DNA of 61,292 nucleotides, counting the filler. It is 8 parts of 8 records of this genome, joined end to end, with 100 filler letters (N's around TTAATTAATTAA, not from the genome) between each part and the next. Parts side by side here need not be neighbours in the genome. Positions count along the whole stretch, not along the records: positions 54,928 to 61,292 come from SRR7504441_705; 7 more parts are not named here. One strand, 5' to 3'. The position numbers were made by a program, and so were the translations under genes. Of the stretch, positions 3,497 to 61,292 are shown in pieces (position 1 is the first letter of the stretch; each line of letters starts with the position of its first letter). The notes beneath the pieces are model-generated. The model saw only the letters and a list, made by a program, of their open reading frames with translations, searched no databases and was not told the DNA's origin.

Positions 3497-3630
3497 CTTA
3501 TCACCCTGCCGGTGTCACTGATCGGCCATGCTGAGTGCCGTTTGAGTTGAGTTTCGTTTGAGGGAGCCACCGGCAGCAGACGGGCGGCCTCATGAGGGCC
3601 TGAGGGCCCCTGCGCGTGGCGGGACGTCGA

Positions 3631-6501: not shown

Positions 6502-6601
6502 NNNNNNNNNNNNNNNNNNNNNNNNNNNNNNNNNNNNNNNNNNNNTTAATTAATTAANNNNNNNNNNNNNNNNNNNNNNNNNNNNNNNNNNNNNNNNNNN
6601 N
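6502..6601. other. Artificial contig linker (N-TTAATTAATTAA-N, stops in all six frames)
   Basis: Same 100-nt linker at 12902-13001, 17361-17460, 35130-35229, 38926-39025, 46204-46303 and 54828-54927. Confidence 0.98.
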
Positions 6602-12548: not shown

Positions 12549-13001
12549 GATGCTCGTGGTATTAGTTAGTACTTAGTAGCTGGGACCATAGGTACAGCCA
12601 TTAACAGCCATGGTTATTGAAGTACCGGCTTAGTCAGTCTTAATTGAGCATTAATTTTAGTAATTCGGTTGCGTGCTAATGATCGAAGTTGCCAATTTGA
12701 TTTATATCTTTTTTAATCTACCGTGGTCTTCTCAATCTCTGCGCGTCTCCAGCTCTGCTATTATATTTCGCTATTTGGTCATTGACTAGAGTGCTGGTCC
12801 TGGCTGAACTTCAGTGGGGCTCGTCAGTGCCGTCTCGGGCGTCTCCATGGCCACCGCCACACGCTCGATCTCGATCTCCTCAGTGGTGCCGTCCACTGAC
12901 ANNNNNNNNNNNNNNNNNNNNNNNNNNNNNNNNNNNNNNNNNNNNTTAATTAATTAANNNNNNNNNNNNNNNNNNNNNNNNNNNNNNNNNNNNNNNNNNN
13001 N

Positions 13002-17157: not shown

Positions 17158-17525
17158 TACGAGCGAGCATTGACAAGTGGCATGATCGTTTAAATCAAAT
17201 CTGTCCATGTCCTTGACGAATGAATACCGAATGACGTCGTGAATCCAGTAGAATCCATTCAATCCATTCAAGTATTACTAATCTTGTAGTTCACCGCTTT
17301 CCGCATGTACTCGTACTGTGCCAGCAGCCTATATTTTCCATAAAAGTGTCAGAACTTTAANNNNNNNNNNNNNNNNNNNNNNNNNNNNNNNNNNNNNNNN
17401 NNNNTTAATTAATTAANNNNNNNNNNNNNNNNNNNNNNNNNNNNNNNNNNNNNNNNNNNNCACCAGAATCAACAGCATAAACAAATTGCCCGGAATCTGC
17501 ACTGAGACCGAGTCTCCGGAGAGTA

Positions 17526-20470: not shown

Positions 20471-23400
20471 ATGTCCCCGGAGGAGGTGGGTCCCCCAGAC
20501 CGGCTGCATGAGCTGCCGGAGGAGCTCGGGCTGGAGCAAGAGGTGCTGGCTGCCTTCGACACGCTGGACGACCTGGGACGAGGCGTCATCTCCCGGCAGC
20601 ACGTGGACGTGATCCTCAGACTGTTTGGGATGCGACCGAGGCCGCTGCAGACGCCGGAGGAGGTGTTTGCAGCGTACTCGGACCAGACCGTGGCCGACGC
20701 AGTCCTGGACGTGACTGGGACGGTTGGAAGCATCAGCCGCGATAGCGTGCTGCATTTTTTCCAGCTCGACCCCGTGGCGAGGGAGTCCACCCCACGGTTT
20801 GCGCTGCTGCGGCGGCTTTACACAGTCATGGCTGGTGACGAGGGAACTCCACTGCTCCTGCGCGACGCTCAGCGCCTTTTTCGCGTCATGGTGCAGTATG
20901 GCTGTCTGCTGGGCTCATTGCTTTGCTGCCAGGGCTTCCAGGCTGAACTGTCCGACTTTGCTTTGTACACTGGGATTGAGATCCCTGACAACAATACAGG
21001 GCTGTTCCACGATACGGTGAGCCCTGGTAATGGCACCTGGCCGATGGGTTGTCAGAGCGAATCGGACGAGCGAGCGTCAATAGCTAGGAAGATAGCAATG
21101 AAACAGCGAGCATCGGTACTCCTGTGCTATCCATGCTGTGCTGTACTGTGCTGTCATCTCAAGTTTGCGCTCTCAGGTGCTGTTGAACGAAGGGCATTCA
21201 GATGGACTTGACAATGCTACTAAGACCGCACTGCACGGTCTGATGACTAGTGACGGGGACCCTGAAGAGGACTGTATTGTTGATGGTCTGATGGCGTCGA
21301 TGGCCAGCGAAGCTCTTATTGCTGAAATTATGGTCGCAGCCAGTGGGACACAGGTAGCGTCTGCTGTTCTGTGAGATTGTAATGAGTCGTGGTGCAGCAA
21401 CGTGCGGGTCGACTCAAGCTTGCATACCTTCTTAGAACTGATGCTGGAGTTCAGGACAAGCTTGGGCTGTTAAACTGCTTGGTGACAATTGAAATTATGG
21501 CCCAAACAATTTGCACAAGAGGCGAAGGCGAATTTATTACGGATACGGAATTCAAAAAGGTTTATGCCGAAGCAGTCGAGGCTATCGAAATTGCTCTGGT
21601 ACTGCTGGATATTTCGCAGGTACTGAGCGTGTTTTGCAGGTAACGTGCGACGGCTCACTGGAGAGCAATGAGATTGATGCAAGCGACGGCTCACTGGAGA
21701 ACAACGAATTCAATGAAGATAAATTGGAAGACTGGGTGACTGTCATCGCCCCACCAGGTGAACCCAAAGTGAATGTACCTAATCTGATACAACGCGTGCA
21801 GATGAGGGTGCAGTTGAGGAGGAAGACGAGGATGATGTTAATAGCATAATCCAAGAAATGCCATTTGAGTTGACGAATGGCGACGAGGACCCTGAGACTA
21901 CTTTCTCAGTCCAGCGAACGTCTCGACCCACACAAAGTGGCCAAGCGACTCAGAGATCTAGACGGGGCAGTGTTGCTCAGCGACGCACTCAGAGACGAGG
22001 CAGCGTTGCTGGTCTTGTGCGAAGAGGTAGTGTTTCTGAGCGGCATCACAAAGCTAAGCAAAGTGTCAAAGGCCAATGGGCCGAGCGTCGCTCTAGCTTT
22101 GTTTCTGTTATCTCGGATCAAGGAGCCCACGAGACCAAGAGCCGTCGTCGGTCCCTCATCAAAAGGCTACAAGCATCCAGAATCCAGGCAGCTCAATTGG
22201 CCATGGACAAATGCAAGATCGATTTTGGCGAGTGGCTACAACTATACAGTTCAGTGTCGTTCAAGCCACAAGAGGGAAGGACCCGAGGTTTGGTGACTTC
22301 AAGATGGGATGGTCAAATGAGTGCTGCAAAGTGCAAGCGCGTGTTGGTAATGATTGATCGTCTTTACTTTCTCGCATGCAGTGACGATGGAGAACTCACT
22401 GTGCAATCTTTGCATGCTGCTCTCATACGTTTTGTGGGCGGCATTCACGTAAATGAATCGTCTGCGCACCGGTCCAGTCAGCGGGATCTCAATAGGCTCA
22501 AGATCTTTTATTATCGATTTGCTACTGGTAGCACGGCAAACCTGCAAACCTTTGTTCGCATGTTGGGTTCAGATGAAGACGATAATGTGCCAGGCCAACT
22601 TGTTGAGTTTGTTCGTAAAATTAGGACTCTCTGTGCAGCATATGAGCTCTTTGACCAGGACGGCGGTGGAACTATTGATTCCGAGGAATTCGGTGCCACG
22701 ATGACCAAGCTGTTTCGGTGGCGGCCGACCCGCTACGAAACAGAGAAGATGATGGCCATGGCTCTTGGGCTGAAGCACGAAACCTGTGATGAAATTGACT
22801 GGGGCGGCTTCGTCCGAATGATGACGCTACGGCACTCCGGAATTGTTGCCGAAAGGCTCACGCAAATAGCTGACTCGATTGCTCGCTTGTCGGGGCTGTT
22901 TGACTGTTTCAGCACAGAAGCTCCTGGTTATGCGGTACTCGATTTTGCAATCAGCAGTCAAGACTTTGCACAGGTTATCAGTGCGACTGGTCAGCAGTAC
23001 TCGGATCAGGAACTTCAGCATATGCTCGACAGAATCAGGAAACGAAGTGCCGAAATATGTGGTGTGCCTGTACCCGATGTTGAGGCCGATGTGACTGAGA
23101 TCAGCTTTGCGTGCTTCGTCAACATGCTCACGGATACAGACTCTCAAGAAAAGCAACGTGTGGAGCTGGCACTTACAGAAGCAAGGCTCCTCTTTGAGCT
23201 CTACGCAACAGGAGAGGAAAACGAAGATAAATTGATTTCAGTGTCAGATATAGCTCGGTTCATCTCAGCGTTATGTGGATGTAAACAATTTGAAGTAATT
23301 CGTGAATTGGTTGACATGCTTGACGCCAGGCCTGATACAAGATTGAGTTTTCCACAATTTGTTGCAGTGATGACTGGTTCAGCTGCCGAGTGCCAGGATC

Positions 23401-26400
23401 TGATCTGGAGTCGTATGCGAGAGCTTAGGAATGTTTACTCTTTGTTTGATTTTGATCATTCGGGAGCTGTAGATCTTCAGGAATTTGCATCAATTTTGAA
23501 GAGATTTGGTGGCGTCGAAGCGCATAAGATCGATGAGTCCGTCTGTGCTTTCGACTTGGACGGTAATGGCTTGCTCGACTTCGCTGAGTTCACAGAAATG
23601 ATGTTAAAAGGCGACGACCGCATTGTGTCGCATGTGACCGGTCATGTGGACATGCTAAAAGAGCTCTATTCCGTGGTCCAGGTAAACCAAAGCAACTCAA
23701 AGTCCGCTCCTTCTGCACAAAGCACCGTGGCCCAAGCACTGGTGATAATCAGCGGCTTATCAAAGGCTGAGGCGGAGGCGACGGCCACTGGTATCTGCAA
23801 CGACAAAGAGGAACTTGACTTGCAGGAATTCGTCAGGCTAATGATCACAACAGAAGTCCAGCAGGAGTGCACCCGTTTCAAGCGGTGTTTGAGTGACCTG
23901 CGTCAGGCTTTCAATGTGTTTGAGCAAGATGGGCTAGCAGTAATCAAAGAGAAGGAGCTCAAAGTGACTTTGCAATTGCTCGGAATTGAGCTCAATGATA
24001 ACGACATCAGAGACATGATAGACTCCGTCGACAGCGATAGATCTGATGGCAGCTTAAGCTTTGGGGAATATGTTAATCTGGCATTACCGCTGGTTTTACG
24101 CTATCGGGCAGATATGTTCAAAGACGAAGTCGACATCCAGTCCCGAGCAAATAAGATCCGTGAGGATTTTGCCTCGCTGTCTACAAAGTCTACAGTTCCC
24201 TTGTTCAGCAACAGGCAACAGCTAGACGGGTTTATGAGAACTGAGCCTCCAAAGTGGACAAAAGAGATGGCTGAACGTATTGCGGACTTCTTGACAGACA
24301 GCTGTGGGAATCCTGTCATCAAACGACTGGATCGGGAAACTTGCATCAAATTTTGCCAACAGGCTCGTCTCGTCCGAGCAGCTCCTGACTGCCGTATCGT
24401 TGAAGAAGACCAGCCTCACCAACTTTTAAAGTATATGCTTGTGGTCGTGAAAGGCCATATCGAAATACATCTTCCAGAAGGGATGCTAGCCACTACTCCG
24501 CGCCACGAAGTGTGGACCGCAGTTCAGCAGTTTTTGGCATTAATGACAAGTCGCCTGAAGCATTCTCTGAGTCTGTGGTCAAGCTTTGCTTGTGCTCCTG
24601 CCAAGATCAGAGGCAGGATCGGAATCTTGCACAGAATGATGGCGGAGACGATTCAAGAAGTTGACATCATGTTGTCTGAGGCTATAGAGATTGTAGAGAT
24701 GACTGAAATGTTTGATATTTGGTGCAAGCCCGCAGTTATTTCGAAAGGCATCCGCGTCCTCACAAAGTTACAGGTGATGATAGAGGCTAGTGATGAGTGT
24801 CAAGAGCAGTGTGCAACGGTGCGCCTCTGGCTGATTACTAGACCTCACCTCCACAATGCATCTAGCATGTCAGCCATCGCGAGTGTTCTGGATAGCTTGA
24901 CGACGCTCCTCCTCGACCTTCGACTCTGGAAGGCGTCTCTGGAACCCATTTTTGGGAAAGGAGATACAAAAGCTCCCATGCATGAGAGCTCAAAGGAGCG
25001 AAAGGATGCCTCGGGCAGCCTGCTGCTCAAGAATGTGAAGCAAGTGGGTACAATACTTCAGGGCCAGGCTTTAGGTCTGTCGAGCTTGCTAAGCGTGAAA
25101 TATGGGATGGATCTGGATCATCACAGCAAATCAAGCAATTCCTGCACGGCGGTGGCAGGCCTAGGGGATACCAGTGGGACAGGGACTCTGATGCTTGCAT
25201 TCAACCGAGATGGCCTGATCAAGATACTTTCGGAAGCACCTGCAAAATTCATAATCTCGCTCAAGCCGTTTGAATGGCTCGATTCGGATTCCCGGGCTTG
25301 GAAAAAACTGGCCATGGCCTGCACCCCTGGAAAATATAGATTTGGTGAGGTTGTTGTACGAGCCGGCCAGCGCGCTTCCAGTGTTCTCTTGCTGGCCAAA
25401 GGCCAACTTAAGATTCTCGCTCCTGGGAGCTCTGGTGCTGGCGTGGAACCTCATCAAAACGGGCCGTCTTGCCGTGATACCATCTCGATCGTCGTGGCAC
25501 CTGCAATTGTTGACATGGTACAGAAAGATGTTGCTGGGAAGCAATGCCAGCAATACACCATGATTGCAGATGCTTCTCACCTAGAGGCTTGGTGGATGCC
25601 CCGGCTCCTCTTTGATCGATTTTCTAGCGGTAAGAAGGAGCTGCGAAGCTCAATGGAGTGGCAAAGTCAGGTATGCACTGAACAAATTGGCCTCATAGAA
25701 AATAATCTAGAGCTTCTAGAGTTGACATCATCGGGAAAGAACGAAAAGCTCAATCTGGAGCTTCAGGCAATTGAAGAGAAGGAAAACGAGATAGACACGA
25801 ATCTCGACCAGCTTGATCACCTCGATTCAGCACGAGCGGAAATTTCAATCCACTATCGACGCGAGGGCACCAGCAATGAAATGGACATTCATAAAGTAGT
25901 GGTTGATGTCTGTAAGGACGCATCCAGGCACTTCTCTTTGTCAGAATCGGGCAAGTACGCTGATACTAAGTGCGCCCGTGAACACCAGATGCAAAAGCTC
26001 CGCCGGGCAGCAGACCCACCGGCTGCTCCCTATGTCCCAGTTCAGCCCAACCTAGTGGCGCCTCCACCAAACATAGGTGAGCCCCCATTGGCTATTCTCC
26101 AACCAAAGGAGCGGTACAGACTGCGACAAGAGCCGCTTCATGCCCGATTTGATCACATGGTCCGGAGTCCTCGACGCCATGCGCTCTCAAAAGCCAGTGC
26201 AAATCGATTTGTACTGCAGCAATCCCAGGAACAGCGACCAGTTGTTCAGCGATCCGCCGTTCATGGCGCAGCAACACCTGACTTCATCCATGACTTCATC
26301 GATAATGTAAAGCAGAATGGATCGTTGAAGAGCCGCTTCAATCGGTCAGTTATGAATCTTGCAAACAAAATCAAGCAGATTGAGCGAAAGGCCACAAAAG

Positions 26401-26857
26401 CTGCAGGCTTGCCATTTTCCGAATGTCCGCTGGCACTGCTGAAGTCGCATCTGAAAACCATGGACGAAAAGATTGCACCCAAGAGGATAGGTCGAATTGT
26501 GAAGCAAGCTTCTGGTGTACTTGCCCGATTCCGACCGACCAAGCCCAGAGATCCCAAGGGCCCAAATTCATCCAAACGCGGGAGACCTAGCCAGACATTT
26601 GTGCAGCCCTTGATTCGCCCTGGAGTGATGAGGGCTGCTCTGGGGATTCAAAATATCTATCTTGGGGATGAAGGGCCGGCCACAGCTCGAACAGCTCAGG
26701 TAGGCTTGATTATTGCTCTTACACTATCAAATCATCGTGTACTCACTCGTGTTTGCAGGAGGAATCGACATTCATCACGGCAATGAATACTGTAGACTTG
26801 CCAAGTATCTCTCAACCACAAACTGCGAGGCCGTCCTTCAATGTTCACCGTTCTTGA
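20471..26857 (+). CDS. Giant multi-EF-hand protein with two cyclic-nucleotide-binding-like domains
   Basis: EF loops DQDGGGTIDSEE, DFDHSGAVDLQE and DLDGNGLLDFAE. CNB-like YMLVVVKGHIEI..VGTILQGQALG and FGEVVVRAGQRASSVLLLAKGQLKI. Six 5' introns join ORFs 20471, 21138, 21389, 21511 and 21858; one 3' intron near 26700-26758. Confidence 0.75.
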
Positions 26858-29159: not shown

Positions 29160-30841
29160 ATGGTGAGTAGCAGTTTGCGCGGAGGGCTTAGCTGGGCGGG
29201 CGCAGGAGTACCTGGAGCTGGCCGAGGCAATCCGGCCGAGCAAGTGGAACAAGCTGCGCGGGGTGCTCAAGGGCTCCGGTGCGCTCCGGGGTATCCTCAA
29301 CAAGCGGCCGGGGTACGGTGCGACCGACGACCACTCCGAGATCGAGCTCAAGCCGATCGACCCGGAGGCCGCCGAGCCGGCCGAGCAGGCGGCCTCGGCA
29401 CGGTCTAAAGGGATGAAGCAGCTGTTCTCGTTGCTCAAGCTGGCGCTCCCGGTGGCGCTGGGGATGGCCGCCCAGAAGTTCATGATGAACACCACCTCAG
29501 CCGTGGTGGCCAGGCTCGGGTCCAAGATCCTGGCCGGGGTGGTGCTCGGGGTGGCGCTCACCGACATGTGCGGCGACCTGATCTACGGGCTGCTCGCCCC
29601 GCTCTGCTCGCTGGTGTCCGAGGCGATCGGGTCCGGGCAGGGCCGGATGGCCGGGCATTGGCTCCAGCTCACCTTCCTGATCGTGGCGGTGCTCTCCACC
29701 CCGATCGTGCTGCTCTTCTGGTTTGGCACCGGCCCGATCGTGTCGCACCTGACCCCGGACCCGGACGTCGTGGAGGTGGCCATTGAGGTAAATCACTTGC
29801 TGATCCCGGGGCTGTGCACGCTTTGGCTGTACACGGCGATGCGGCTCTACGTGCACGGGCTCAAGCTGGTGACCGGCACCACGATCGCCGGGCTGGCCGC
29901 CGTGTTCTGCAACATCCTGATGGTGCACGTGCTGGTGGAGGGGGTACCTGCCATAGGGTTTGGAGGTATCGGGATCGCAGGCGCCGCTTGGGCGATCAAC
30001 ATCTCGTTCGTGGTGCAGTTTGCCGTGTGCTATGTGTGCACTTTCATGTGCTCCGAGCAGTTTGCGCAGTACGACGCGTGGCAGGGCTGGGACAGCGAGG
30101 CGTTCGGGATGGACCGGATCGTCACTTTCAGCAAGCTGGGCGTGCCTCTGGCGGTGGCTGGCTGCGCGGAGGCATGGGGGAATCGGCTTCTGACCATGGC
30201 CAGCGGGATGCTCGGGCCGACTGCCACCGCGGCGTACAACATCGGCACCGTGTACCGCGGGATGTTGCTCTCTATCTTCTCCGGGTTCGGGGTGGCCATT
30301 CAGGTGCAGGTAGCAGAGAAGCTGGGCAGAGCCAAGCCCGAGGGCGCCCGGCTGGCCTTTGGGGCGGTCCACTTGTTCGTGGTGGCCCTGTGCGCGGCGA
30401 TGACTTTCGGCACATTCGTGTGCCGGACGCAGATTGCCAAGATGTATGCGGATGTGCGTAGATTTGGCCGGCTGGCGTGAGGCTTGTGTGCTGCAGGAGG
30501 AGGAGCTGGTGACCACCATATCCGAGCTGCTCCCGCTGGTGTGCATCGACTTCGTCTTCTCCACCTTCGCCTCCACCTTCAAGCACACGCTGATAGGGCT
30601 GGCGCAAGCCAAGACGGTGGTGAGGGCCCAGATGTTCTCGACCTGGCTGGTCCAGCTGCCTCTGTCGGTCCACCTCGGGTTGTATTCGAACTGGACTTCC
30701 GGCGTGTTCGGGTTTGTGTGGGGCAGCGCATGCGCCAACGCGGTCTGCTGTGCGCTGTTCGGATATGCGCTCTTTTCTGCCGATTGGCAGCAACTGAGTG
30801 ATGAGGCTGTGCAACGCTCTCGGCTTGGCAGCAAAGCGTAG
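29160..30841 (+). CDS. MATE-family transporter
   Basis: LLKLALPV, RLGSKILAG, LVSEAIG, GIAGAAWA, KLGVP..EAW, VAEKLGRAKPEGAR. ATG-only first exon (intron 29163-29205); second intron near 30454-30496. Confidence 0.88.
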
Positions 30842-35071: not shown

Positions 35072-35229
35072 AGCACTTGTAACATTTGGATACAATTGTG
35101 TGTACTAGTAATCAATCTCCTATAGCGCGNNNNNNNNNNNNNNNNNNNNNNNNNNNNNNNNNNNNNNNNNNNNTTAATTAATTAANNNNNNNNNNNNNNN
35201 NNNNNNNNNNNNNNNNNNNNNNNNNNNNN

Positions 35230-38925: not shown

Positions 38926-39205
38926 NNNNNNNNNNNNNNNNNNNNNNNNNNNNNNNNNNNNNNNNNNNNTTAATTAATTAANNNNNNNNNNNNNNNNNNN
39001 NNNNNNNNNNNNNNNNNNNNNNNNNCTCTTGCTTGGCCTCCACAAGGAACTCATCCGTGCTGAGGGGGTGTTCCCCCTCTGAACTGATCATAAGCGTCAT
39101 GAGTGCCTCAGTGGACTAAGATAAAGAAAGAGCTACGGTAGTGTATAAACTAAGACTTACCATGCATGGACATAATCACATAGCGCCGCATTTATTTGAT
39201 TGGAG

Positions 39206-45814: not shown

Positions 45815-46303
45815 GTCTGGGCTGTCTGATGTGGGCGCAGCTCTGGGCTACATTTGTTGAATTGCTTTACACAGCGCGCTTTCGATATATACTTGTAAAT
45901 AATTATGAAATAATTATGATGTCGCAGTCTACGTACGTACAATCATCTACCTCTAATTTCCCTTTTGTGCACGTGCTGGCGTCACTCCGTACCGACCATC
46001 TGTAGCAACCTCCATACGAAGTGGGAGTAAGTCGCAATCTCACAGAGTGCCGTCCGTCCGTCCGTCCGTATACGTACGAGACAAGTCATAGTACGAAGGT
46101 TCGTCTTCTGTATTAAGTGATCGAAACCGAGCCCACGGCGTCGGAGGCGTTATGCATAAGTACTCAGCGCGTGGGCGATCGGCATGTCGGCTCTAGCCTC
46201 CTCNNNNNNNNNNNNNNNNNNNNNNNNNNNNNNNNNNNNNNNNNNNNTTAATTAATTAANNNNNNNNNNNNNNNNNNNNNNNNNNNNNNNNNNNNNNNNN
46301 NNN

Positions 46304-46496: not shown

Positions 46497-49400
46497 ATGG
46501 AGCAGTCGCCGTCGGAGCAGCAGCAGCAGCAGCGGTTGCCGGCGGTGGAGCAGCAGTGCGACTCTGACGAGGCGGCGGACGGGAGCGAGTGCGGCGTGAT
46601 CGAGCACGTCTATCTGGAGAACTTCAGGATCCACGAGAAGCTGAACGTGGACCTCAACCCCAACATCAACTTTGTGGTGGGCGACAACGGCTCCGGCAAG
46701 AGCTCGATCCTGTCGGCCATCTCGGTGGCGCTGTGCGGGCGGACCAAGGCCACTGGGCAGGGCTCAACGCTCAAAGACCTGGTTCGGTGGGGGGCGAAGT
46801 GCGCTGCCCGCGAGGCGGGACCGAGGCGCGGGCAGGACCGCCAAGATCGTGCTCCAGATCCGGAACGTGGGCGCCGACGCCTTCCGGAAGGAGGCGTATG
46901 GGGACAGTATCAGTGCGCTGGCCGGCGGCCTGCGGCGGCTGAGCTGGGCTGGCAGCCATCGAGCGCAAGATCGGCACCACCAACTCGTTCGAGCTGAAGA
47001 GCCGTAACGGTGACGTGCACGTGACTGGCTGTGCTGAGCGCTGCGGCTGTCAGGGCAGAAAGTCACGCCAGCAAACAACAGGAGCACCAAGGAGGAAGTG
47101 CAGGCAATCGTAGAGCAGTTTAACATCCAGGTCGAGAATCCGATGATGATCATGACCCAGGTCTCACCCAGCGAGCCAGGCAGCGCTGAGCGGTCAGTGG
47201 CAGGAGAAGCAGAAGGTGTTCATCACTGCGACGCCCCGAATGCTCTTTGAGTTCTTCAACGAGGCGACTCAGCTGCGTGACATCGAGTCCGACTATCGAG
47301 TTATCGAGCAGGACATTCAAGAGGTGCCATCCCCTGTGCGGCGCTGTGTCGATCCGGCGCAGATCGAGCTGGCGAATCAGAAGACGGTCGATGAAGACCT
47401 GCCAAAGGCGCAGGATCAGTACGACAGGGCAGCGCGAGAGTACGAGAGTGTGAGGGGCTTGATGGGAGATCAAGAAAAGGTGGGCGGCTGCAGCTGTGCC
47501 GGCCGACCTTCTGGTGCAGGTGAAGGAGAAAAAATGTCAGTTGGCCTGGAAGCTGCTGTGGGAGGAGGAGCGCAAACTTGCAAAGGAAATCGAGGTAGAT
47601 GGCTGGCTTCTGGCGGCCCGAGTGACGTGCGGCAGACGCTCGAGAAGATGGACCAGCTCAAGCTGCAGTTCAAGGGCAAGGAGGAGGCGGTCTCTACTCA
47701 GATCGAGCAGCTGGAGCGCGAGGTGACCGAGGCCGAGGCCGAGTTTAGCAACGTCGAAGCAATGGCCGAAGATGACCTCAAGGAGGTCGAGGCGATGGAG
47801 GAAAATATCAAGCTGGCTACCAAGGAGCTCAAGACTGCCGAGAAAGAAGCCAAATCTTATGGCAAGGAGGTCAAGTCGAAGCGGAACGAGATCAGGCGTT
47901 GCAACAAGATGATAACCGAACTGACTGAAGATACCAATCCGCGGGCCAAAGAGATGCAAGCACTGCAGGCATGCCTGCTGGTTTGAAAGCCCGGCTAACT
48001 TGGGGCTTGCAGGATGAGGAGAACGAGTTGAGGCCGAAGTTTGAGGAGCAGCGAGCGCTGAGGGAGCAGTCTGGTAGGGAACAGGTGCAACTGAGCAAGG
48101 AAATTGAGGAATTGAAGCAAGCCATCGTGAGATCCAATAATGAAACAAGAGAATATGGTAACGAGTTAAAGGAACGCCACATGGAGATCGAGCGGAATAA
48201 GCAGGCCGCAGACAACGAGGTTTTGAGGTTCTTTATCGGAGCAGACCCTGGGAGGATCAGAAGACTGATGCAGGCAATTGAAAGTGATCGGCGATGGATA
48301 AAAACACCTGTGGGACCAATAGGCGTCAATGTCAAGCTGCGGACTGGTTGTGAAAAGCATGCGTTGGCAGTCGAAAACTGTATTTCATCAGTTCTGCGGA
48401 GCTTTGTTTGTGATAACCCGCAAGACAAGGAGCTTCTGTTTAAGATTCTAAAGCAGCACAAATTCGAGCGCACTCAAGTGATCACCTCTAGCTTCACCGC
48501 CAGGCACCGGACGCAGCGACCACCCAGCAGGGGCATCACCACAGTAGAAGATGTCCTCGACATCTCCAATGACGCAGCTTTCAATGTTCTGGTCGATTTC
48601 ACAAAAATCGAGAGCAACGTTGTGGCACAAAACTGGGAGGAGGCGGAAAGACTGGTCAAAAACGATAAGAAAATTATGAGGGCGTGGGCCCCAGACGGCC
48701 AGGCGATAACATTCCGGCACGGTTCAACAGCTTTCAGCCCGCCCAACATAAAGGATCGCCGTGCATGCCTTTTGACGGGAAGCTCAACCGAAAGGCTTGC
48801 TCAAGCTGAAGCGGACATGAAGTGGGTGACAGACAAGATCAGCCGTTTACAAGCATTGTGCCAAGAGGACAAACAAATGCTGGCCCAGAAGACCGAGGCA
48901 CACAACCAAGCCAGAGCCACATATAGCTCTGTCCACCGGGCTTATGAAGGCATGCAATCACGGCTGAGAGAAATTATGTTGATAGTGCAGGAGATTAAAG
49001 ACGAGATACAGGCAAAGGCGGGTGCACAGGAGAGTGGGAGGATAGAGGCTGCTGAGGCTCAGATTCAGGAGCTCAAGGAAGAGATTACACGCCTGGAAGA
49101 GGCGCAAGAAACAGCCAATGCGAAAGTGCGCCTCAAGCAGGAGGCGAAAGCCGAACTTGTGCAGCGGAAGGAAGCCCGACTCAATGAGGTATTTGAAATG
49201 ATGGATCAGAGGGGTAGCGAAGCACTCCAAAAAAAGATTTCAGAAAAGAAAAGCGAGATTGACGCCAAGAATCGATACCTGAAAGGCGAGCTACTCAAGA
49301 AAAGCCGCGATTTAGAAGCAAGCAGCAACGATAAGCAAGAATCCTTGCAGGCGCTGAAAGATAAAGTTGAAAAGAACAAGGTGGGTGTCAGAAGAATGGC

Positions 49401-50184
49401 TGACGCTTCCAGACTTCCCCAGTACGAGGAGCGCCCTGCTGACCTGGATGATTATAAGTCGTCTAAAGAGATTTGGATACAGATAACGGCATTGGAGAAA
49501 CGGATCGATGCGCAGAGGGATCGTGGGGTGGACACTCGTAAGATTGAATCAACTTACCGCTCAAAGAAGCAAGCGCTGGAGAGCATGGAGAGGAAACGAG
49601 ACAAGCAGGTGAGACTATTGGAAGGTTTCAAGGATGATCTGAAAAATAGGCAGAGAAAGCAGAAGGAATTCCGTAAACAGATCAAAGATTTACTGGAGAA
49701 GAAGTTTAGGAAGTACATGAAAAAGCGCAATCACAAAGGAAAAGTGCTCATTGACTTTAAAGAGGAAACACTTAAATTCGATGTGACGGTCGCTGGCAAC
49801 AAGGCCGTGGAGAACAAGGAGACTGAGAGTCAGCCATCGAAGAAGAAGCGCAAAATAGGTACAGATACAAAGACCCTCAGTGGAGGCGAGCGAGCCTTCA
49901 CCACCCTGGCATTCTTGCTTGCCCTTGGCGAGGCCATGGAGTGTCCAGTACGAGCTATGGATGAATTCGACTGTTTCATGGATGCTGCCAACAGAAACGT
50001 GTCTATCAGAGAACTTATTACCTTCGCAAAAATGCAAAGTAATAGGCAATTCCTGTTTCTTACTCCGCTGAGCATGACATCAGACATCAATGCTCTAGCT
50101 GGTGACCCAATGGTCCAAATTCTCTCACTCGGCGCCACTTCAAGCCGAGGTCGTGCGAGGAACACCACCCAGGACACTGGCTGA
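46497..50184 (+). CDS. SMC6: Structural maintenance of chromosomes protein 6
   Basis: LENF..H, Walker A GDNGSGKS, FNIQVENP..MTQ, hinge PVGPIG, LSGGERAFTT..AMDEFDCFMD. Eight 37-44 nt introns, all before 48012. Confidence 0.95.
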
Positions 50185-52213: not shown

Positions 52214-54801
52214 ATGCTTGAGCCGGAGGAGGTCGACGACGATCCGCTAGGCGCGCCGCTTTGCAGTGGCGACGCGTGTGAGCCGGAGCAGCCCCGGGAG
52301 GATCCGGGGCGCCGGCGCAACGCGAGCCTGTGGAGCGATCTGGGCGGGACCGACCTGGTCACGGCCAGCAACCAGACCAGCGCCCCGCTGCCCCCAGCCC
52401 CGCTGCCCCCGGCCCCGGCCCCGGCCCCAGTCTCGGCCCCAGTCTCAGCCCCGGCCCCGGCCCCAGTCCCGGCCCCGCTGCCGCCCGAGCCGGACGAGTC
52501 GCTCAAGTTCCTGCTGGCCGGCGAGCGGCCGATGTACGGGTGCCCAGTCGCCGGGGGCCGGCCGAGCCGGGGACAGCGGCCCATGCAGCCGGCACCTGCG
52601 GCGGCGGCTGCTGCGCGGGCAGCTGTGGGTGACCAACTTCCGGCTGCTCTGGCGGCCGGTCGAAGAGGCGCGCAGCCTGGGAATCTCGGTCCCGCTGCTG
52701 GCGGTGCACCGGCTGGCGATGCTCGGGCCCGCCCCGCAGGCCGAGCAGGACGAGATGGTGGTGGCTGTCTACACCAAATACAACGCTCGGTGCCGCGCCC
52801 GGCGGCCGGCTCACCGGGGGGCAGCAAATCGGTCCAGCTGGAGCTGACGGAGAGCGTGATCGAGCTGATTCAGAGCTGGTGCCTGCTGGGGCCTGGGCCG
52901 GCCGAGCCCCGGCAGCACCCAGCTGGGGCACCCGCACCAGTTCCTGTTTGAGCACTTTGCGAGCACCCCAGTCCGAGCCGTTTGCCACTGTTGGCTGACC
53001 GGCCCCCGCAGGTGGAGCAGCTGGTGCAGCAGGGGCACGATGGGTGGCAGACCGGCAGCCCGCTCGACGACTTCCGGCGGTGCGGGCTGGCTGCTCCCCT
53101 GGGGCGAGAGGGTGCGCAGGCAAGGGGTGGCCAACCTGAACTCGGTCTGGAGATTGTCCGAAGCGAACAAGGAGTACCAGATATGCGCGAGCTACCCTGA
53201 GGCGATCTTCGTGCCCAAGGCGATCTCGGACGAGCAGCTGCGCGAGGTGGCCGGCTTCCGCTCGTCCGGCCGGCTGCCCTGCCTGTGCTGGAAGAATAAG
53301 CACGGATTCGCCACCATCTCCCGCTGCTCGCAGCCGATGATCGGAGCGTTCCAGAAGGCACTCTCGCGGGCCGGTAGGCTGACTGTGTGGCAGGCGTGCG
53401 AGGCAGACCAGCAGCTGCTCCGGGAGATCGGCCGGACCAACGTGCTGCTCGGGCTGTGCTTTAAACATCTGGGCCAGGTGATCAACGAGGTCCTGCAGAT
53501 CTTTGACTGCCGGCCCAAAGTGAATGCGCGCGCCAACATGATGGCCGGCAAGGGATACGAGCGCGGGGAGCACTACAGGTGCAGCCCGGCCTGGCGCGCT
53601 CAGACGGGCCCAGCCACATCAACATCGAGTTCCTGGACATAGAGAACATCCACGTGATGCGCGACTCGCTCGCCAAGCTGCTCCAGGTGCTGGGAGCCAC
53701 AGGGGCAGCTTGAGTGCGGGCAGGTGCTCGAGGCAGACTTCTCCGAGCTGCACTGCAAGAAGAGCTTTCTGCAGGCCGTCGACGAATCCGGCTGGATGAA
53801 TCACGTCAAGGCGGTGCTCGCGGGCGCGGCTCGCGTGTGCGCGCTGGTGACGGACCCAGACGACCAGAGGCAGCTCGGGCCGGCGGCTGGGCCGAGTGCG
53901 GGGCAGGTCGGTGCTGGTGCACTGCTCGGACGGCTGGGACCGTACCCCGCAGGCGCAGCCAGTCGGGTCCCCGGGGCAGCTGAGTGGGTGTGCAGCTCAC
54001 CTCTCTGGCGATGCTGATGGCCGACTCGCACTACCGGACAATCGACGGATTCATCCAGCTGTTCGAGTACCAGTGGGTCGGGTTTGGGCACCAATTCCCG
54101 ACTCGGATCGGCAACTCGTGCCTGCACAGGTCGCGCCCAGTGCCGGTGCAGGCTGACTGGGCGCGGCAGTCAGGAGTTTGGGATCAAGTTTAAGCCGGAC
54201 CAGGTCTGCCAGTTGCTGCTTCAGGGTTAGAAATAGGATCAGGTCTCGCCGGTCTTCGTCCAGTACATCGAGTGCGTCTGGCAGCTGATGATGCAGGCGT
54301 GCCCCCATCCATCCAAGACTGACCGATCGCAGAACCACGGCGCGTTTGAGTTCAACACGCTGTTGCTGCTGCTGATCCTCGAGCGGCTCACCAGCGGACA
54401 GTACGGCTCGTTCATGTTTGGGAGCGAGCAACAGCAGCACAAGGCCCGGCCGGAGGGAGGCTGCCGTGCTCAGGGCTGGGCAGGTACAGGCTCACTCGAG
54501 TTGTCACTCGGCCTGGACAGACGTGCTCCAGGATAGAGCCAAATTCACCAACCGGCTCTACAATCCAGCTGCTTCGGGCCGGCTGGAGCCGAATCTGTCG
54601 CGACTCAAAATTTTCGAGGTGTATTACCTCCGGGGTTCTCAATTGTACGAACCAAACAATAGCTTCATGGCGCTCGAAACAGCGCTAGGTGAAGCGCGCA
54701 CAGCGCAAGCGACAATCGAACAAGAAGCTGAACAGGCTCCGTTTGCATTGCCTGCTGTACCTGCGGCTTGCAAACCAAAGAAAACGCAAATCGGATTGTA
54801 G
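52214..54801 (+). CDS. Myotubularin-related phosphoinositide phosphatase (active, with GRAM domain)
   Basis: [70 protein letters not shown]. About 15 introns of 35-43 nt. Confidence 0.93.
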
Positions 54802-54927
54802 ATGCCTAGTAATATTCAATAAAGCTCNNNNNNNNNNNNNNNNNNNNNNNNNNNNNNNNNNNNNNNNNNNNTTAATTAATTAANNNNNNNNNNNNNNNNN
54901 NNNNNNNNNNNNNNNNNNNNNNNNNNN

Positions 54928-57900
54928 CTCGTCAGCGGGCCACCGGAGCAGATACGTGCACGAGTTGCAGCTTCAAAGGATCCTAACATGTTCAAGACTT
55001 TGATGAGTGTGGACAAGCTACTACGCTCTCGGCCAAGCAACTTTGGGGATTGCGTGGTCTTTGCCAGACGGAAGTTTGACAAGTGGTTTACAGCTCGAGT
55101 TGCAAAGCTGCTTGTCGCTCATCCAGCGGACGAGCTCGAGACCTACAAGACTAGCGATGGTACACTTGCCAAGAGGCCGTTCTGGTCTTTACCTCGGCGA
55201 CTCCCATGCCCCACTGACTTTGATCCAGCGAATTCAGCACACGTCGACTTTTGCGAGGCGCTTGCGATGCTTCATGCTCGCTTCTGGAAGCTCAGCGACC
55301 CAATTATGGACAAATCGTCCGAACGGCGACAGTGTGTGAGTGCCGTCGCGGCTGGATGCGAATCAGTGGTCCCTCAAGATGTGGTTGTCACGAGCGAAGA
55401 GGCAAAGAAATACCAAGACGGAGTCTCGGCTGCAGACTTGAAAAAGGCTGAGGAGGCTAAATTGGACGTTGGGCAATTTGATGGGCTTGCTGATCGAGTA
55501 TGTACCGCTCTTGAGGAGGCACAAGCGGCGGGCCAGCCGCTCGATTTGTTCGAGGACGAATTCGAAAAGGACGATGATGCAAACTTCCACATCGCGTTCA
55601 TCACCGCGGCTTCAAACCTGAGAGCCGTGGGTTATGGTATTCCAGCTGAATCCTTCTTCAAAACGAAGCTTGTAGCTGGCAAGATTATACCTGCAATTGC
55701 AACCACTACATCCATAGTGAGTGCTCTTGTCTGCATCGAGCTGTTGAAGATAGTCCAGAAGGCACCAAAGAGCAGCCTGAAGAATGCATTTGTCAACCTT
55801 GCCTTGCCCCTAGTTTGCCTGACTGAGCCAATGCCTCCGGTCCAAAAGCAGCTTATCAGCGCCATTGATGATAGTTTGCTTGACTCAAAACTGACCTTCA
55901 CTGCGTGGGACGTATGGCATGTGCCTCTGGGTCGCACTGTGACCCTTGGGCGGCTGTTGGAATACTTCAAGTCGCATTATGGCCTCATCCTCTGGTCGGT
56001 ATTCTATGCTGGGGTTCAAATCGTGGACGGTGCAGGGCGCCTTCAGATGGCTAGTACCACTGGTGCGGCGCTCAAGGTTGCAGAGCAGGAGCTGATGCCA
56101 CTGCTTAAGAGACCGCTGATCGAACTGATTGAGCATGGATGCGCTGTGACGCTGGATGAGGTCGACTCAGTCGATCTGAACGTGAGTTTCAGGGCTCCAA
56201 TCAGCCCAGATGGCATACCTGTCAAAGAGGTGCCCAAGGTGCGACTGGGCTTGTCAGGTGAAGACGTCGTGGTCGGACTCACCGAACGCTGTGCGGAACT
56301 GGAAGCACAGCTTGCAGCAATGGCTTTGGCCGGTTGCGCCGTGCAGCGAGACACTGACGGATTGAAGCTCCGGGTAGATCCGTGCCAGGCCGAGAGCATC
56401 GCAGTGTACTGCCTTGCAAATGAGACTGCCCTGTGTGACATCGCCATGGTCAAACCCGAAGGCAACGAACCAGTCATTGAGCTGAAGGATGGCGAGGTGA
56501 CACTTTCGCATCCAATGGCGATATTGCAGCACTGTGCGCATTTGAGCACCTCGTCGTGGTACCCCATGCCGGGGACTATAGAACGTGCAAGGTGCGATGA
56601 AGCCTTGTGGTGGGCCTGGACCACGCTATATCCGATCATTGTGCCTTTATTGAAGACACGGCCTCCAGAGCCTGATGTGCTTTGTCCCTCGTTCTTTGTG
56701 ACAGGGGCTGGGGTCGAAAAGGCGAGCCCACCTGCGCTCGCTGTGAAGCTGAGAATTTTCTCAGGTTAATGGCACCTATGTACAGTCCAACGAGCTAAAG
56801 GATGGGGTACCCTACTATAAAAACACTAGCAACACTGCCATCATGACCAGGTACAAGATGAACAGCGGGACACGGTGCGCATTTTGAAATCATCCCAGCT
56901 CATTGTGGGGCAAGGTATTGGTACCTGACTGAGTCGACTCTGTTGCACAAGAAGGAGGGAGACTACTATCGGATCAAATCGAGCGCTGATACACCGCCTT
57001 GCAATGATGAGCAATGGTGTCTGGAGGACTGTCCTGATGCGAAACTGCCGGCGCCTGTTGTTTTGAGGTGATTAGCAGTTCCTTTGTTTATTCTTAGTGT
57101 GCTAATATTCTTGGAATATGAGACTCTAGACCTATGTTGACCCTTGACCACAGCTCGAGTCCACAAATCTGGAAGGTCCAGTTTCCCCAGGGAGTCAATG
57201 TTCGGCAAAGTCCATCTTTGAAGGCAAAGAAGGCTGGACCAAAGCTCGCTTGCAATCAATACGTGATGCTCACTGAGGTGCGGTCCGAGAACAAGGAATG
57301 GGCTCTCCTTGACCGCGAGTTCATGGACAAGGTTGGGGATAGGCTGGGCTGGACCCCGTTTGCGAAAGAGTGTGAGCTGTGGCTTCGTCTGAAGTCGCCA
57401 GAGAAAGACTTTGTGATGCCTGGTGACGATGGGCCTGCAATGGCTGATCTTGGTGAGGAGCCTGACCTTCCAGAACTGGAACCCTCGGTTGTTATACAGT
57501 TTCAGGAGAAGATCATACCCGAGCTCAAGTCTCGACTCGAGAAACAGAAGGGCGGGCTGATACTTGGTAGGCAACCGTGTATAGCAGACCTGGCAATTGG
57601 GCTGCCTTTGGCTCTGTGCTGCTTACAGAGACCGCGAAGCGCAGTCTGGACAGCTGATATGGTGCAATACTGCCGTCGACTGCGTCGAAGGCTTCCCCAG
57701 TGGCCGAAATATATGAATGCAATTGAAGTCGAGTATGGTGGCTTCAACTTGTCGCTGCAGTACATGAGTGACACTGGTTCGTTGTGGCTTCCCAATTACG
57801 CGTCCCTTGGCCACCTCAGGGTGGCTCTTAGATCGAAATTCTCCTTGCGTGATACCGCGATGCTGCTCAAAGTCGGTGGAGGCACTGCCCTTGACGGCGA

Positions 57901-60900
57901 GTCGTTCCAAATCACTGAAGTGGGTCCAGACCAGGCAGATCAAACGAGCCTTGTGGAACTCGGCGTTTCCAACCGTGATGGTGTACGTGTTCTCATTGCG
58001 CCTATTGAAGGCGCCGTGTCTGAGGACTATGAGGGCGATGCTCCCGTACTTGGACGGGCAATGAGCCACATGGCAGACGATACCCCAGAAAGCGCCTTGC
58101 AGCGCACCTACACGCAGCACATGATGGAAGAGGTTCCGCAAATAGTCAAGATCGACATGGACCAGGCTGGACATGTCTTCTATCCATTCAGGGATGACGA
58201 ACCTCGAAATGATGCGCGAATAGAGCAGGACATCAGCTACTTGGTCAAGGGACTACCCAAAACTGGGCTCTCTGGTGGCGCTATGTTTGTTGCTCGTGAC
58301 TTGCACCGCCAGCACTATGTTAAGGCGATGCTCATTGGCCCTTCAGACACACCCTATGAAAACGGCTGTTTCGAGTTCGACATCTGTATGCCACCAGAAT
58401 ATCCCGACGTGCCTCCCAAGGTCCAGCTCGTCACCACAGGACGTGGCGCCGTTCGCTTCAATGCTAACATGTACGGACCAAGGGCTGGCTGGAAGAGGCT
58501 AATGAAGTTTATGTCAGGTATCCCAATGGCAAAGTTTGCTTATCCCTACTTGGTACCCACTACAATGGGGCACCGTGGGACAAAGAAAATTCGACACTGC
58601 TCCAAGTGATCCAGTCAATCGCATGGTGCATCATGATAGGCAACGAGGTTCCTGGGAAGCCTTGGTTCAACGAGCCTGGTGTCCCAAGCCTGGGTTTCAC
58701 CCGTCGCTGACCGAATGACAGGCTATGCCGACGATTATGAGCATTCACACCAGCTTAGCTCGCTTGCAGAGGCCCTGAGCAATTGCTATGATCGTGAAAT
58801 TAGGCGATGCAACATCAAGATCTGTATGATTGACATGATCCGGAAGCCGCCCCTTGGATTTGAGCTGGCTGTAAGCGAGCACTTCAGCAAGAAAGGCGAC
58901 CAGATCATTGATCTAGTGAAGAAGTGGGAACAAGAGGAGATGCAATCAGAAGAGGAAATGGTCGTGCAGCTTGAGGACCAGATGAACTCGGCCACCTCGA
59001 GTCAAGAAATGGAAACGGTTCGTTCCAGGCTGGATGCACACTTGTCCCAACTACTCGAAAAAGCCCAATGCAAGATTGCCGAGCGAGACATGGCAAGGGC
59101 TCAAGAACAGGAGGAGCAGTTTATGATGTCACGGCAGGTATCTTTCTATCTAGGGGCAGGCTCTTCTGCAAACCTAGAAGGTGCTGCACCTGTCGATGAA
59201 GACGATCCAATCTCCGCTGGTGCGAAACCAGTGCCTAGCTGGCGAGAGCACTACTGGACTGAGGGCGAAAAAATGGAGCTCGACATTCGACATTATGATC
59301 AGTACTCACCTGGCGGTTTGTTTGCCATAGCAAAGTCCAAATCCTCGATGGTTAAGGAGCTTCTCGATTTCCCCAAATCCGGCATGGCAATCTGCCAGAT
59401 AAATGGTGAGTGGACCATCCACATCGAGGAAATAAACCAGGTCCGCGAGTTGGCCCGCACCACGCAGCGGCCTCTCACCCTTGCTTTTTGCAATATTGAA
59501 GAAGTATCAGCAATCAATGATCTGCCAGAGGTCAAGGAGAAGGTAGCTATTGAGGAGTCACTCACTCAAGTAAGGCAGCTCGAAAGCCTCAAGAGGAAGC
59601 TTTCGCAGCGCATCGAAGCAGCACTAGAGGCCGAAGCAAAAACAGACGAGGAAGAATTGAATCATCTTCGCCAGCGCGTCAAAGGTCTGCGGGCTATTTG
59701 TGAGAAATATGGAGTGGACCACAGAGCAGTATTCGATGAACTTGTGAGGGCTGCGTCGGACAAGGATGATGCGACTGCTGTGACAGCAGGAGACCGCCAC
59801 CAATGGGATGTCAAGCGACAAGAAATGTTGGCCGCTTTGAAGCAGATGGATTTGTACCCTACAGTTGTGCTTGAAGCTGTGCTCGATGGGCTGGGAGTGG
59901 CCAGTAACGACCTCGACTCGGTGCTGGCTGTGATCACAGATTCGTCGTTTGCACCACATGACTGGTTGGCTAGACGCGCTGAGCAGGAGCATCTGCAGGC
60001 CCTCCCAGCCTCGCTGGTAGTCGAAGAGTGGCGGTGTGCCGACGGTGCCATTCTCCCGCTCGAGAGCTGGTCAATTTACCCCGATGGCCATTCGGTCCTT
60101 CGTCATGCAACCAAGGAGGAAATCGTCGAGCGGGTGAGTTGACTGTGTGGCTCTGTGCTGAGATGTGGCTGGTTAGATTCGGCTCAAGTGGAGTCCCTTA
60201 GAAGATGCCATTTGCTCTGTGAAGCAGCTGTTGGCAGTTCTGGCTGCGCCATGCACCCAGTGGGAATATGCTAGCTTCAGCAGCTCGTATTGGCAGCGGT
60301 TTCCGGAGAAAACATGCGCTGAGCTTGAGGCTGCTACCTTGTTTGGAAAGACAAATGTGCGAGTCACCACACAGGACGGAAATCAATACTATGCCGATCT
60401 GGATCAAATGAGAATGAATAACCTCAATCCTGGCATGGGCCACCAATCAAGCAACCAGCAGTGGTAACCAAATCGCCAACTCCGCGGGCCGATGGCTCAG
60501 TGTGCTGGCTGCAGGTACATTCGCAACCGTGATCTCTCTGCCAAGCTGTCGTCTCTTATTGTGCGGGCTGGCCTCCACATCGAGTCACTCCAGGGTTTGT
60601 TGAATGAGCTTCAGGCAGCACTTTCAAAACACAAAAAATACGCTGACAGGTTATAGCACATTTCTGCTAGGACGCAAGCCCTCTGACAGTGAGCGCAGGA
60701 GCGTGGTTCGAGATATTGATCAGAGTGCCAACTATGACGAGACTGCGTTGGCGATGACCAAGACTGCTCAAGAGGACTTCTCCATTCTTCAAGTTGAGGC
60801 TGAACTAAAGGATCCCAATGTCAAAACAGCCAATGAGTGGCTGGCTGGACTCCCGAAGGCTCCGTTCGTGGGAAACAAGACTCAAGTGTGCATGGAAGGT

Positions 60901-61137
60901 GGGTACGGCTTTGGCGGCAAAGCCAATGTTTCCAAAATTGACAGCAAGAAAGTCTTTGAAACAGTTGTGAGCAGCCAAGGTCCTTTCATCACCCACGCAA
61001 TCACAACTACTCAACTTCGTCAAGAACTTGAGGACCTTATTCACCGCCTCCAGGCTGGAGAGGATGTTACTGTCAAAAGTGACGAGTTGACCGTGAACCC
61101 TCGTTTCGACGGCGATGGCGGCCAGAGTGATTACTAA
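54928..61137 (+). CDS. E1-GST-UBL-E2-PDZ-UBA-WWE fusion protein (single-chain ubiquitin-activating/conjugating enzyme), 5'-truncated
   Basis: E1: FWSLPRRLP, FEKDDDANFH..ASNLRA..YGI..AGKIIPAIATTT. E2: LIGPSDTPYENGCFEFD..RFNANM|YPNGKVCLSLLGT (Cys at 58537-58539). Introns 56722-56764, 56875-56914, 57068-57129, 58471-58517, 58679-58721, 60134-60176, 60464-60514 and 60650-60698 give one stop-free frame of 1,943 codons. Confidence 0.8.
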
Positions 61138-61292
61138 GTGATTGGATCTGGGTTGGATCTACTTTAACGATCTGACCCACTCCACCCTAGCTCTAGATCT
61201 CCTCATACAGTAGTCCATACAGTAGTCATACTGCGTAATAGACAGACATTGATAGATAGTATTCAAGGTTTCCCATTGTTTATTGGGGGCAC

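Follow-up and report, generated by a model that had tools for sequence, protein, structure and literature searches.

A gene in which ubiquitin-activating (E1) and ubiquitin-conjugating (E2) enzyme sequences share one reading frame lies at positions 54928 to 61137 (plus strand) of the window, the whole 61,292-nucleotide (nt) stretch of DNA analysed here. The analysis shows that this region comes from one nuclear gene of a microbial eukaryote from an aquatic setting and makes up at least the 3′ two-thirds of it; the whole product would have about 2,600 amino acids (aa). That the gene is real, fused and one gene is held with high confidence. From its 5′ edge it encodes the C-terminal half of an E1, a GST-like region, a UBC domain of the BIRC6/UBE2O/UBE2Z class, a long linker and a WWE domain; SCCH, UQ_con and WWE are the domains that score above Pfam cut-offs. 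The same E1→E2 architecture was found in at least four other sequences, and the opposite, E2→E1, in eight sequences from environmental eukaryotes.

Gene structure and splicing

The last contig of the window, 54928-61292, holds the fusion gene and opens in the middle of the reading frame. The 5′ part of the gene is cut off at 54928 by an artificial linker at 54828-54927, with a loss of about 688 aa in the numbering of P0271, the longest guide used. Introns were placed with the closest database relative as guide (P0001, then its longer isoform P0271). The resulting model has nine exons and eight introns of 52 (or 43, with a GC donor), 40, 62, 47, 43, 43, 51 and 40 nt, and encodes 1,943 aa with zero internal stops, ending at TAA 61135-61137. 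An earlier interpretation made from the letters only (the sequence-only reading) had proposed eight introns of 40-62 nt and one frame of about 1,943 aa; its length and end were reproduced exactly. The features of the gene are as follows.

54928..56712 (+): exon 1, 5′ truncated; 56% identity to P0001 689-1287
54943-55668 (+): E1 SCCH domain; Pfam PF10585, E 9.7e-42, 144 bits, profile positions 33-254 of 254
to about 55812 (+): end of the second adenylation part, within exon 1
55906-56253 (+): UFD-like segment, ending VPKVRLGL (56230-56253)
56383-56670 (+): GST N-part and helix alpha4, by phmmer against PDB; preceded by a helical linker after VPKVRLGL
56713..56764 (+): intron 1, 52 nt, GT-AG; alternative donors in frame
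56765..56874 (+): exon 2, first half of a beta-rich insert; 62% identity to P0001 1285-1323; no Pfam match
56875..56914 (+): intron 2, 40 nt, GT-AG; 14 of 24 flanking residues identical, P0271 contiguous
56915..57067 (+): exon 3, second half of the beta-rich insert; 50% identity to P0001 1321-1378
57068..57129 (+): intron 3, 62 nt, GT-AG; frame carried on, the following 103 aa absent from P0271
57130..58470 (+): exon 4, with SH3-like insert, GST C-half, possible ubiquitin-like module, pre-E2 motif and UBC N-half
57131-57439 (+): SH3-like insert (Pfam-matched 57191-57310); SH3_3 E 0.065, below cut-off
57440-57760 (+): GST C-half; weak PDB matches, language-model Atlas GST_C clan 0.93
about 57761-58010 (+): possible ubiquitin-like module, without Pfam match
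from about 58217 (+): UBC domain N-half; UQ_con PF00179 on exon 4 alone
58471..58517 (+): intron 4, 47 nt, GT-AG, within the UBC domain; 23 of 24 flanking residues identical to P0271
58518..58678 (+): exon 5, UBC active site; catalytic Cys codon 58537-58539
58679..58721 (+): intron 5, 43 nt, GT-AG; 20 of 24 flanking residues identical to P0271
58722..60133 (+): exon 6, in which the C-part of the UBC and its BIRC6-type extension reach about 58927 and a long helical linker follows
60134..60176 (+): intron 6, 43 nt, GTGAGT...AG; 15 of 24 flanking residues identical to P0271
60177..60463 (+): exon 7, WWE domain at 60258-60434; 60% identity to P0001 2064-2159
60464..60514 (+): intron 7, 51 nt, GT-AG; P0271 reads ...EEQW|YIRQRDL... 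across it, 16 of 24 flanking residues identical
60515..60649 (+): exon 8, short helical segment, by alignment to P0271
60650..60689 (+): intron 8, 40 nt, GT-AG; junction weakly conserved, 6 of 24 flanking residues identical to P0271
60690..61137 (+): exon 9, conserved C-terminal tail, no Pfam family; 58% identity to P0271 2228-2339 over 60790-61098

Five of the eight splice junctions (introns 2, 4, 5, 6 and 7) are contiguous against P0271, with 14-23 of 24 flanking residues identical. Removal of intron 4, and nothing else, restores RFNANMYPNGKVCLSLLGT, the E2 active site with its catalytic Cys, and WFNEPGYADDYE runs on across intron 5 into the C-terminal extension that follows NEPG in the BIRC6/UBE2O/UBE2Z class. 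An in-frame TAA at 60465-60467 is spliced out with intron 7. A gene end at this TAA was considered and rejected: the guide P0001 stops 6 aa later only in an adapter-derived peptide, and P0271 continues. Intron 1 has five phase-0 donor candidates, four GT (56713, 56743 for an intron of 22 nt, 56698 and 56677) and one GC (56722, for an intron of 43 nt), and the frame is kept by all of them. The 43-nt GC-AG variant has the top score against P0271 (4552 vs 4533), and its junction length agrees with that of P0271.

Relatives with the same domain order

P0271 is a 2,345-aa open reading frame (ORF) from the independently assembled transcriptome of another organism. Its residues 689-2339 are collinear with the spliced model over all nine exons, and 965 of 1,627 aligned columns are identical (59%). 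It holds a whole E1, comprising two ThiF repeats, FCCH, 4HB, SCCH and a weak UFD, and no adapter-derived peptide was found inside it. More distant relatives keep the order. In P0002 (34% identity), E1, UFD (26 bits), a UBX-like match, UQ_con and WWE follow one another, while P0004, one ORF of 1,408 aa on a metagenome contig, runs from E1 through a weak GST_N match and a GST C-half-like stretch to the pre-E2 segment. In P0128, SCCH (residues 10-165) and UQ_con (928-1017) lie in a single ORF. Because P0271 is collinear and P0002, P0004 and P0128 show the same order, a chimera or a pair of neighbouring genes is very unlikely, and the two objections that the sequence-only reading had allowed for, two adjacent genes and a chimeric assembly, are answered. 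Judged by this shared domain order, the E1→E2 fusion is real and recurrent, a small family rather than a singleton.

P0001, P0272 and P0002 are labelled 'complete' yet begin or end in the peptides LSLIHI and DVYKRQ, which we take to be translations of sequencing adapter; their ends are thus artificial. A wide search of representative sequences returned mainly fragments and plain E2s. The metagenome scans yielded no relatives of the E1 part, and the pre-E2 motif was met there at one locus of 1.1 kb (L002).

The E1 part

An unbroken open frame of 613 aa (54928-56766) carries the SCCH domain, the end of the second adenylation part and a segment that ends like an E1, and continues into the GST N-part. 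The passage from an E1 C-half into a GST N-domain without a stop, as first proposed from the sequence, is thereby upheld by the SCCH match, by VPKVRLGL and by the GST matches described below. VPKVRLGL is similar to the termini of the E2→E1 proteins. The proposed UFD in front of it fared less well: the end motif is present, and the domain itself, at 16 bits, is below the Pfam cut-off. Among relatives, the UFD scores 18 bits in P0001 and 26 bits over profile positions 1-91 in P0002. This weak UFD fits relaxed selection on E2 recruitment after tethering, and equally fits a degenerate E1.

Against solved structures, the E1 part in the window scores 150.0 bits with Schizosaccharomyces pombe Uba1, 149.5 with human UBA6, 143.6 with human UBA1 and 107 with UBA7, and the whole E1 of P0271 scores 600 bits with human UBA1 vs 584 with UBA6. 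By these scores, the E1 part is of UBA1/UBA6 type and about equally close to the two subfamilies. Among the relatives, P0271 and P0004 have the ATP motif GxGxxGCE, DNxxAR and the catalytic Cys of an E1 (GSGAIGCE, DNVKAR and PVCT in P0271, GAGAIGCE and PYCT in P0004), and in P0002 the ATP motif reads GSGAIGCE and the Cys lies in PVCI.

GST-like region and inserted modules

When the 172 residues after the E1 end were searched against PDB, all 16 matches (E<=10) were GSTs, the best at 5.9e-5 and covering GST positions 23-121, which correspond to the second half of the thioredoxin-like domain plus helix alpha4. Pfam gave no GST_N match in the window, and the Atlas, which uses language-model features, gave only 0.79 for the N-part, a value we treat as a lead. 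The C-half matches in PDB span GST positions 103-161 and take over where the N-part alignment ends. By the Atlas, the C-half falls next to Glutaredoxin2_C/GST_C clusters (0.93), and its top ten families all belong to one clan. An AlphaFold2 model of P0271 1120-1560, built on a 7-row alignment, had a mean predicted local distance difference test score of 40.5 and a predicted template modelling score of 0.26, too poor to judge GST packing.

Between the halves lie the beta-rich module of exons 2-3, which belongs to no Pfam family, and the SH3-like module, the 103 aa at the start of exon 4 that are present in this organism and absent from P0271. SH3_3 reaches E 1.9e-4 in the relative P0122. The ubiquitin-like module had zero Pfam matches in the window, and a near-threshold UBX-like match was obtained only in P0002. 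Hence, of the modules that the sequence-only reading had placed in this later exon, the E2 stands firmly, the SH3-like module stays below threshold and the ubiquitin-like one is without a match. Its claim that two halves of one GST fold flank the junction holds with significance for the N-part; the C-half reaches E 0.38-1.5 besides its Atlas score. These comparisons point to a GST-like fold into which beta-rich and SH3-like modules are inserted, a proposal that is half solid, with a firm N-part and a weakly supported C-half.

Two long proteins, P0284 and P0285 (3,753 and 3,845 aa), combine a BIRC6-class UBC with bacterial-type SH3 and SUMO-like/ubiquitin-like domains, module types that resemble those suspected in the linker of the window protein. 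With the linker region of P0001 as query, the sole match was P0001 itself.

The E2 part, post-E2 linker and WWE domain

UQ_con PF00179 matches exon 4 alone with E 1.2e-9 and 38.3 bits vs a cut-off of 27. In PDB, the N-half of the UBC domain is closest to BIRC6 (65.9 bits), followed by UBE2Z (50.2). The UBC of P0271 scores 134 bits with BIRC6, 88 with UBE2O and 86 with UBE2Z, and aligns to BIRC6 UBC residues 79-277. By these scores the E2 part is a member of the BIRC6/UBE2O/UBE2Z class, and the earlier assignment to the BIRC6/UBE2Z class with an intact motif agrees with them, the Cys lying in the restored active site. No BIR domain was detected by Pfam in five ORF pieces (E<=0.01), six window pieces (E<=1) or P0271; the window protein is therefore no BIRC6 ortholog.

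A family-specific pre-E2 motif lies in exon 4 ahead of the UBC. In P0121 and P0124, a zinc-finger-like motif, CPVC...H...H, stands just ahead of the pre-E2 motif KIDMDQAGHVF; it is absent from the window protein (58040-58110). Other relatives of the window's E2 (P0123, P0125-P0127 and P0130) have two or three UBC domains of the same class per chain.

After the E2, the helical linker of exon 6 matches no Pfam family at E<0.04, and at 59200-59500 it carries about 170 aa that have no counterpart in P0271. Part of this stretch looks PDZ-like by eye; Pfam gave no match there. The WWE domain (PF02825, 60258-60434) scores 32.1 bits vs a gathering cut-off of 21.1, with E 1.6e-7, and had been missed in the sequence-only reading. 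A likeness between the tails of P0002 and the window protein, seen by eye, was not confirmed by tblastn.

Reversed fusions and the E1 tree

With the E2 region as query, 19 proteins were matched, 10 of them with both ThiF and UQ_con. Eight of these ten (P0278-P0283, P0287 and P0288) have the UBC at the N-terminus and the E1 at the C-terminus, the UFD forming the protein end. The E1 of one of them, P0279 (1,391 aa), is closest to human UBA6 (741 bits vs 684 for UBA1), and its E2 to the BIRC6 UBC (256 bits). All eight retain the ATP motif and both catalytic residues, the E1 Cys as well as the E2 Cys. Neither GST nor WWE was found by Pfam in P0278, P0279, P0280 and P0287.

To examine E1 relationships, 46 E1 sequences were placed in a quick maximum-likelihood tree that had no named UBA6 and no outgroup; two rows, the window's own included, were less than half filled, four were on long branches and twelve deviated in composition. 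In this tree, 33 of the 34 unfused E1s form one clade with 99 in the Shimodaira–Hasegawa-like approximate likelihood ratio test (SH-aLRT). The window's group (5 rows, support 88), the E2→E1 set (7 rows, 100 SH-aLRT) and the remaining unfused E1, P0003, lie outside it. P0003 is clearly UBA6-like (993 vs 878 bits). The link between the window's group and the E2→E1 set has a support of only 41. Since the domains occur in either order and the two sets form clearly distinct clades, these families seem to have been fused independently on two or more occasions; the E2→E1 proteins are probably an independent fusion.

A stand-alone E1 with about 30% identity to the E1 part of P0279 was noticed at 7654-10290 of a contig (L001) from a giant-virus metagenome-assembled genome in IMG/VR. 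A scan of viral contigs with P0287 gave zero matches.

Proposed mechanism and alternative explanations

By analogy with animal enzymes, the protein may well act as a self-charging and probably E3-independent ligase, a relay that we regard as the more probable mode of action by a modest degree. The E1 part would adenylate ubiquitin, or a close relative, and load its own Cys; the thioester would then be passed to the UBC tethered in the same chain, in place of a free E2 recruited via the UFD. GSTs commonly dimerise, and the GST-like fold, if dimeric, could let the transfer go to the partner chain. Since WWE domains of animal ubiquitin ligases bind iso-ADP-ribose, the WWE domain would be the best candidate for choosing ADP-ribosylated targets. 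The loaded UBC would probably modify substrates directly, without an E3, because the animal class members BIRC6 and UBE2O do so (PMC12818219). According to two further papers, UBA6 is the specific E1 for charging BIRC6 in animals, and the BIRC6 UBC is bound tightly to the UFD (PMC12999496; PMC13623948). The opposite-order fusions in other protists argue for selection for a dedicated E1-E2 pair, as UBA6-BIRC6 in animals. A broader version, which we put forward tentatively and at clearly less than even chances, would have the whole cascade in one chain, with transfer in cis or in trans within a dimer and ADP-ribosylated targets picked by WWE, and a pairing of a non-UBA1 E1 with BIRC6-class E2s that predates animals and was fused at least twice.

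Several observations weigh against this picture. The UFD match (PF09358, 16.1 bits, E 0.018, cut-off 25) covers profile positions 1-33 only. The E2 of the window protein has NAN, and its relatives have NPN. The Uba1 and UBA6 scores of the E1 part tie, and for this lineage the UBA6-BIRC6 analogy is tentative. The GST C-half is below significance in PDB searches, both alone (two of two matches are GSTs, E 1.1-1.5) and as a small family profile (three of four, E 0.38). The N-half and catalytic Cys of the E1 lie beyond the 5′ edge of the contig, and tblastn with P0271 revealed no E1 N-half elsewhere in the window. On the RNA side, the search turned up one public run (share 0.06), an aquatic metatranscriptome in which a single 603-nt contig matches 58042-58642 at 99%, with 5 mismatches in 601 nt, 2 of them inside intron 4. 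This contig retains intron 4, covers no other part of the gene and may be DNA or pre-mRNA. With this one matching contig, the public RNA runs gave no transcript of the host organism showing splicing or the fusion junction.

Part of this evidence would also be explained if the fusion were real without a single-chain ubiquitin relay, one moiety being a scaffold or pseudo-enzyme, the modifier being another ubiquitin-like protein, or the E1 part being the cell's general UBA6-like E1, serving free E2s, with a UBC simply attached. A UFD degenerate by Pfam in both the window protein and P0001, NAN in place of NPN, PVCI in place of PxCT in P0002, an E1 part equidistant from UBA1 and UBA6, and the long branches of the E1→E2 group outside the clade of 33 unfused E1s all speak for it. 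We consider it unlikely, though the most credible of the alternatives, since every fused protein covering those regions retains the ATP motif, DNxxAR and the Cys residues of both E1 and E2, and two independent fusion orders are hard to account for unless the catalytic parts cooperate.

A considerably smaller chance is given to separate products, made also or mainly, with an E1-GST protein ending in the intron-rich stretch and an E2-WWE protein starting from ATG 57134. Retention of intron 1 would lead to an in-frame stop at 56767-56769, that ATG lies near the start of exon 4, and no host RNA among the public runs covers the junction; moreover, P0271 is without the first 103 aa of exon 4, which marks the junction as evolutionarily plastic. 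However, the GST fold is split over the junction, each of the five candidate donors of intron 1 keeps the frame, the ortholog transcript (P0271/P0001) reads through, and P0004 and P0128 have E1 and E2 parts within single ORFs. Finally, a chimeric assembly, or neighbouring genes read as one, might be suspected because the stretch consists of joined contigs and the Trinity guide ORFs have ends derived from what is presumably adapter. This appears extremely improbable: the E1-GST join lies within one contig and one unbroken frame, an independently assembled relative with 59% identity and remoter ones show the same domain order, and the interior of P0271 is free of adapter peptide.

Other contigs of the window

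The window joins eight contigs by seven identical artificial linkers of 100 nt, each N44-TTAATTAATTAA-N44, and guanine plus cytosine content varies from 0.49 to 0.70 between its stretches.

6502-6601, 12902-13001, 17361-17460, 35130-35229, 38926-39025, 46204-46303 and 54828-54927: artificial linkers, N44-TTAATTAATTAA-N44
1853-3514 (-), 21783-26783 (+), 29167-30477 (+), 47929-50181 (+) and 53851-54156 (+): genes of other contigs, by domain scan or ORFs

The other contigs carry ordinary eukaryote-like genes, including an amino-acid permease, a 1,667-aa EF-hand protein, a MatE transporter and an SMC-hinge protein. One frame on another contig has the motif CSDGWDRT, which we take to be a myotubularin phosphatase active site.

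Implications

Eukaryotic ubiquitylation is taught as the work of three separate enzymes, and E2/E3 hybrids are known. Natural eukaryotic fusions of an E1 with a BIRC6-class E2, in both orders, would serve as a 'Rosetta stone' for dedicated E1-E2 pairing at a time when the UBA6-BIRC6 pairing is the subject of current structural work. They would also provide natural, covalently tethered E1-E2 complexes for the study of transthiolation and a compact ubiquitin-ligating module in a single gene. In protists, ADP-ribosylation and ubiquitylation may be connected, as the WWE domain suggests. If the broader proposal is true, a non-UBA1 E1 has been the exclusive partner of BIRC6-class E2s since ancient times, a pairing that gene fusion fixed for good at least twice. 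A role in defence or stress signalling, as envisaged in the sequence-only reading, found no supporting evidence.

Comparison with known systems

In parts of a 2025 review of E1 enzymes, E1-E2 fusion enzymes are described as prokaryotic, e.g. Cap2 (PMC12355090). Sections of the main text of a survey of ubiquitin-system architectures, its supplementary architecture figure excluded, contain no mention of a ThiF+UQ_con protein (PMC4327156). No description of a eukaryotic ubiquitin E1-E2 fusion was found in the literature searched, Burroughs et al. (2008, 2009) not being covered. Bacterial Cap2 is the only E1-E2 fusion that we found described in print, and the eukaryotic E1-E2 family is apparently undescribed. 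This agrees with the earlier statement that no characterised eukaryotic equivalent is known; as for the concern that the architecture might be widespread and described already, it does recur (at least four E1→E2 and eight E2→E1 sequences), and descriptions of it were not found.

Like bacterial Cap2 of cyclic-oligonucleotide-based antiphage signalling systems (CBASS) and the Bil systems, the window protein combines an adenylating E1 and an E2 in a single chain. Unlike Cap2, it has the order E1 then E2. Cap2 lacks the SCCH, FCCH and UFD domains, and what it conjugates is a cyclase instead of ubiquitin. The PADLOC Cap2 'E1-E2' models gave 0 matches on two window pieces and matched only the Rossmann parts of P0271 (profile positions about 270-490); because these matches come only via the shared Rossmann fold, the likeness to Cap2 is one of convergence, not membership.

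Predicted ascomycete proteins (P0019, P0098) resemble the window protein in having a GST directly after the E1 UFD. They differ from it in being canonical UBA1 with a strong UFD (110 bits), an unsplit omega-like GST and no E2, and could be real fusions or merged gene models. The combination of a canonical UBA1 and a GST was seen in 23 of 120 long E1 matches among those listed, most of them named as ascomycete proteins.

With UBE2O and UBE2Z the window protein shares the UBC class, and UBE2O is an E3-independent hybrid; both are outscored by BIRC6, and neither is fused to an E1. A further parallel is the animal pair of UBA6 and BIRC6. Like UBA6, the ortholog P0271 has pseudo-dimeric adenylation domains, FCCH, 4HB, SCCH and a UFD, though a weak one, and, like BIRC6, the protein has a UBC of the same class, for which BIRC6 is the best solved match. 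Unlike animal UBA6 and BIRC6, which are separate proteins, it is one polypeptide, without BIR and with additional GST-like, SH3-like and WWE modules. In the uncharacterised E2→E1 proteins P0278-P0283, P0287 and P0288, the two families seen in the window's gene are joined the other way round.

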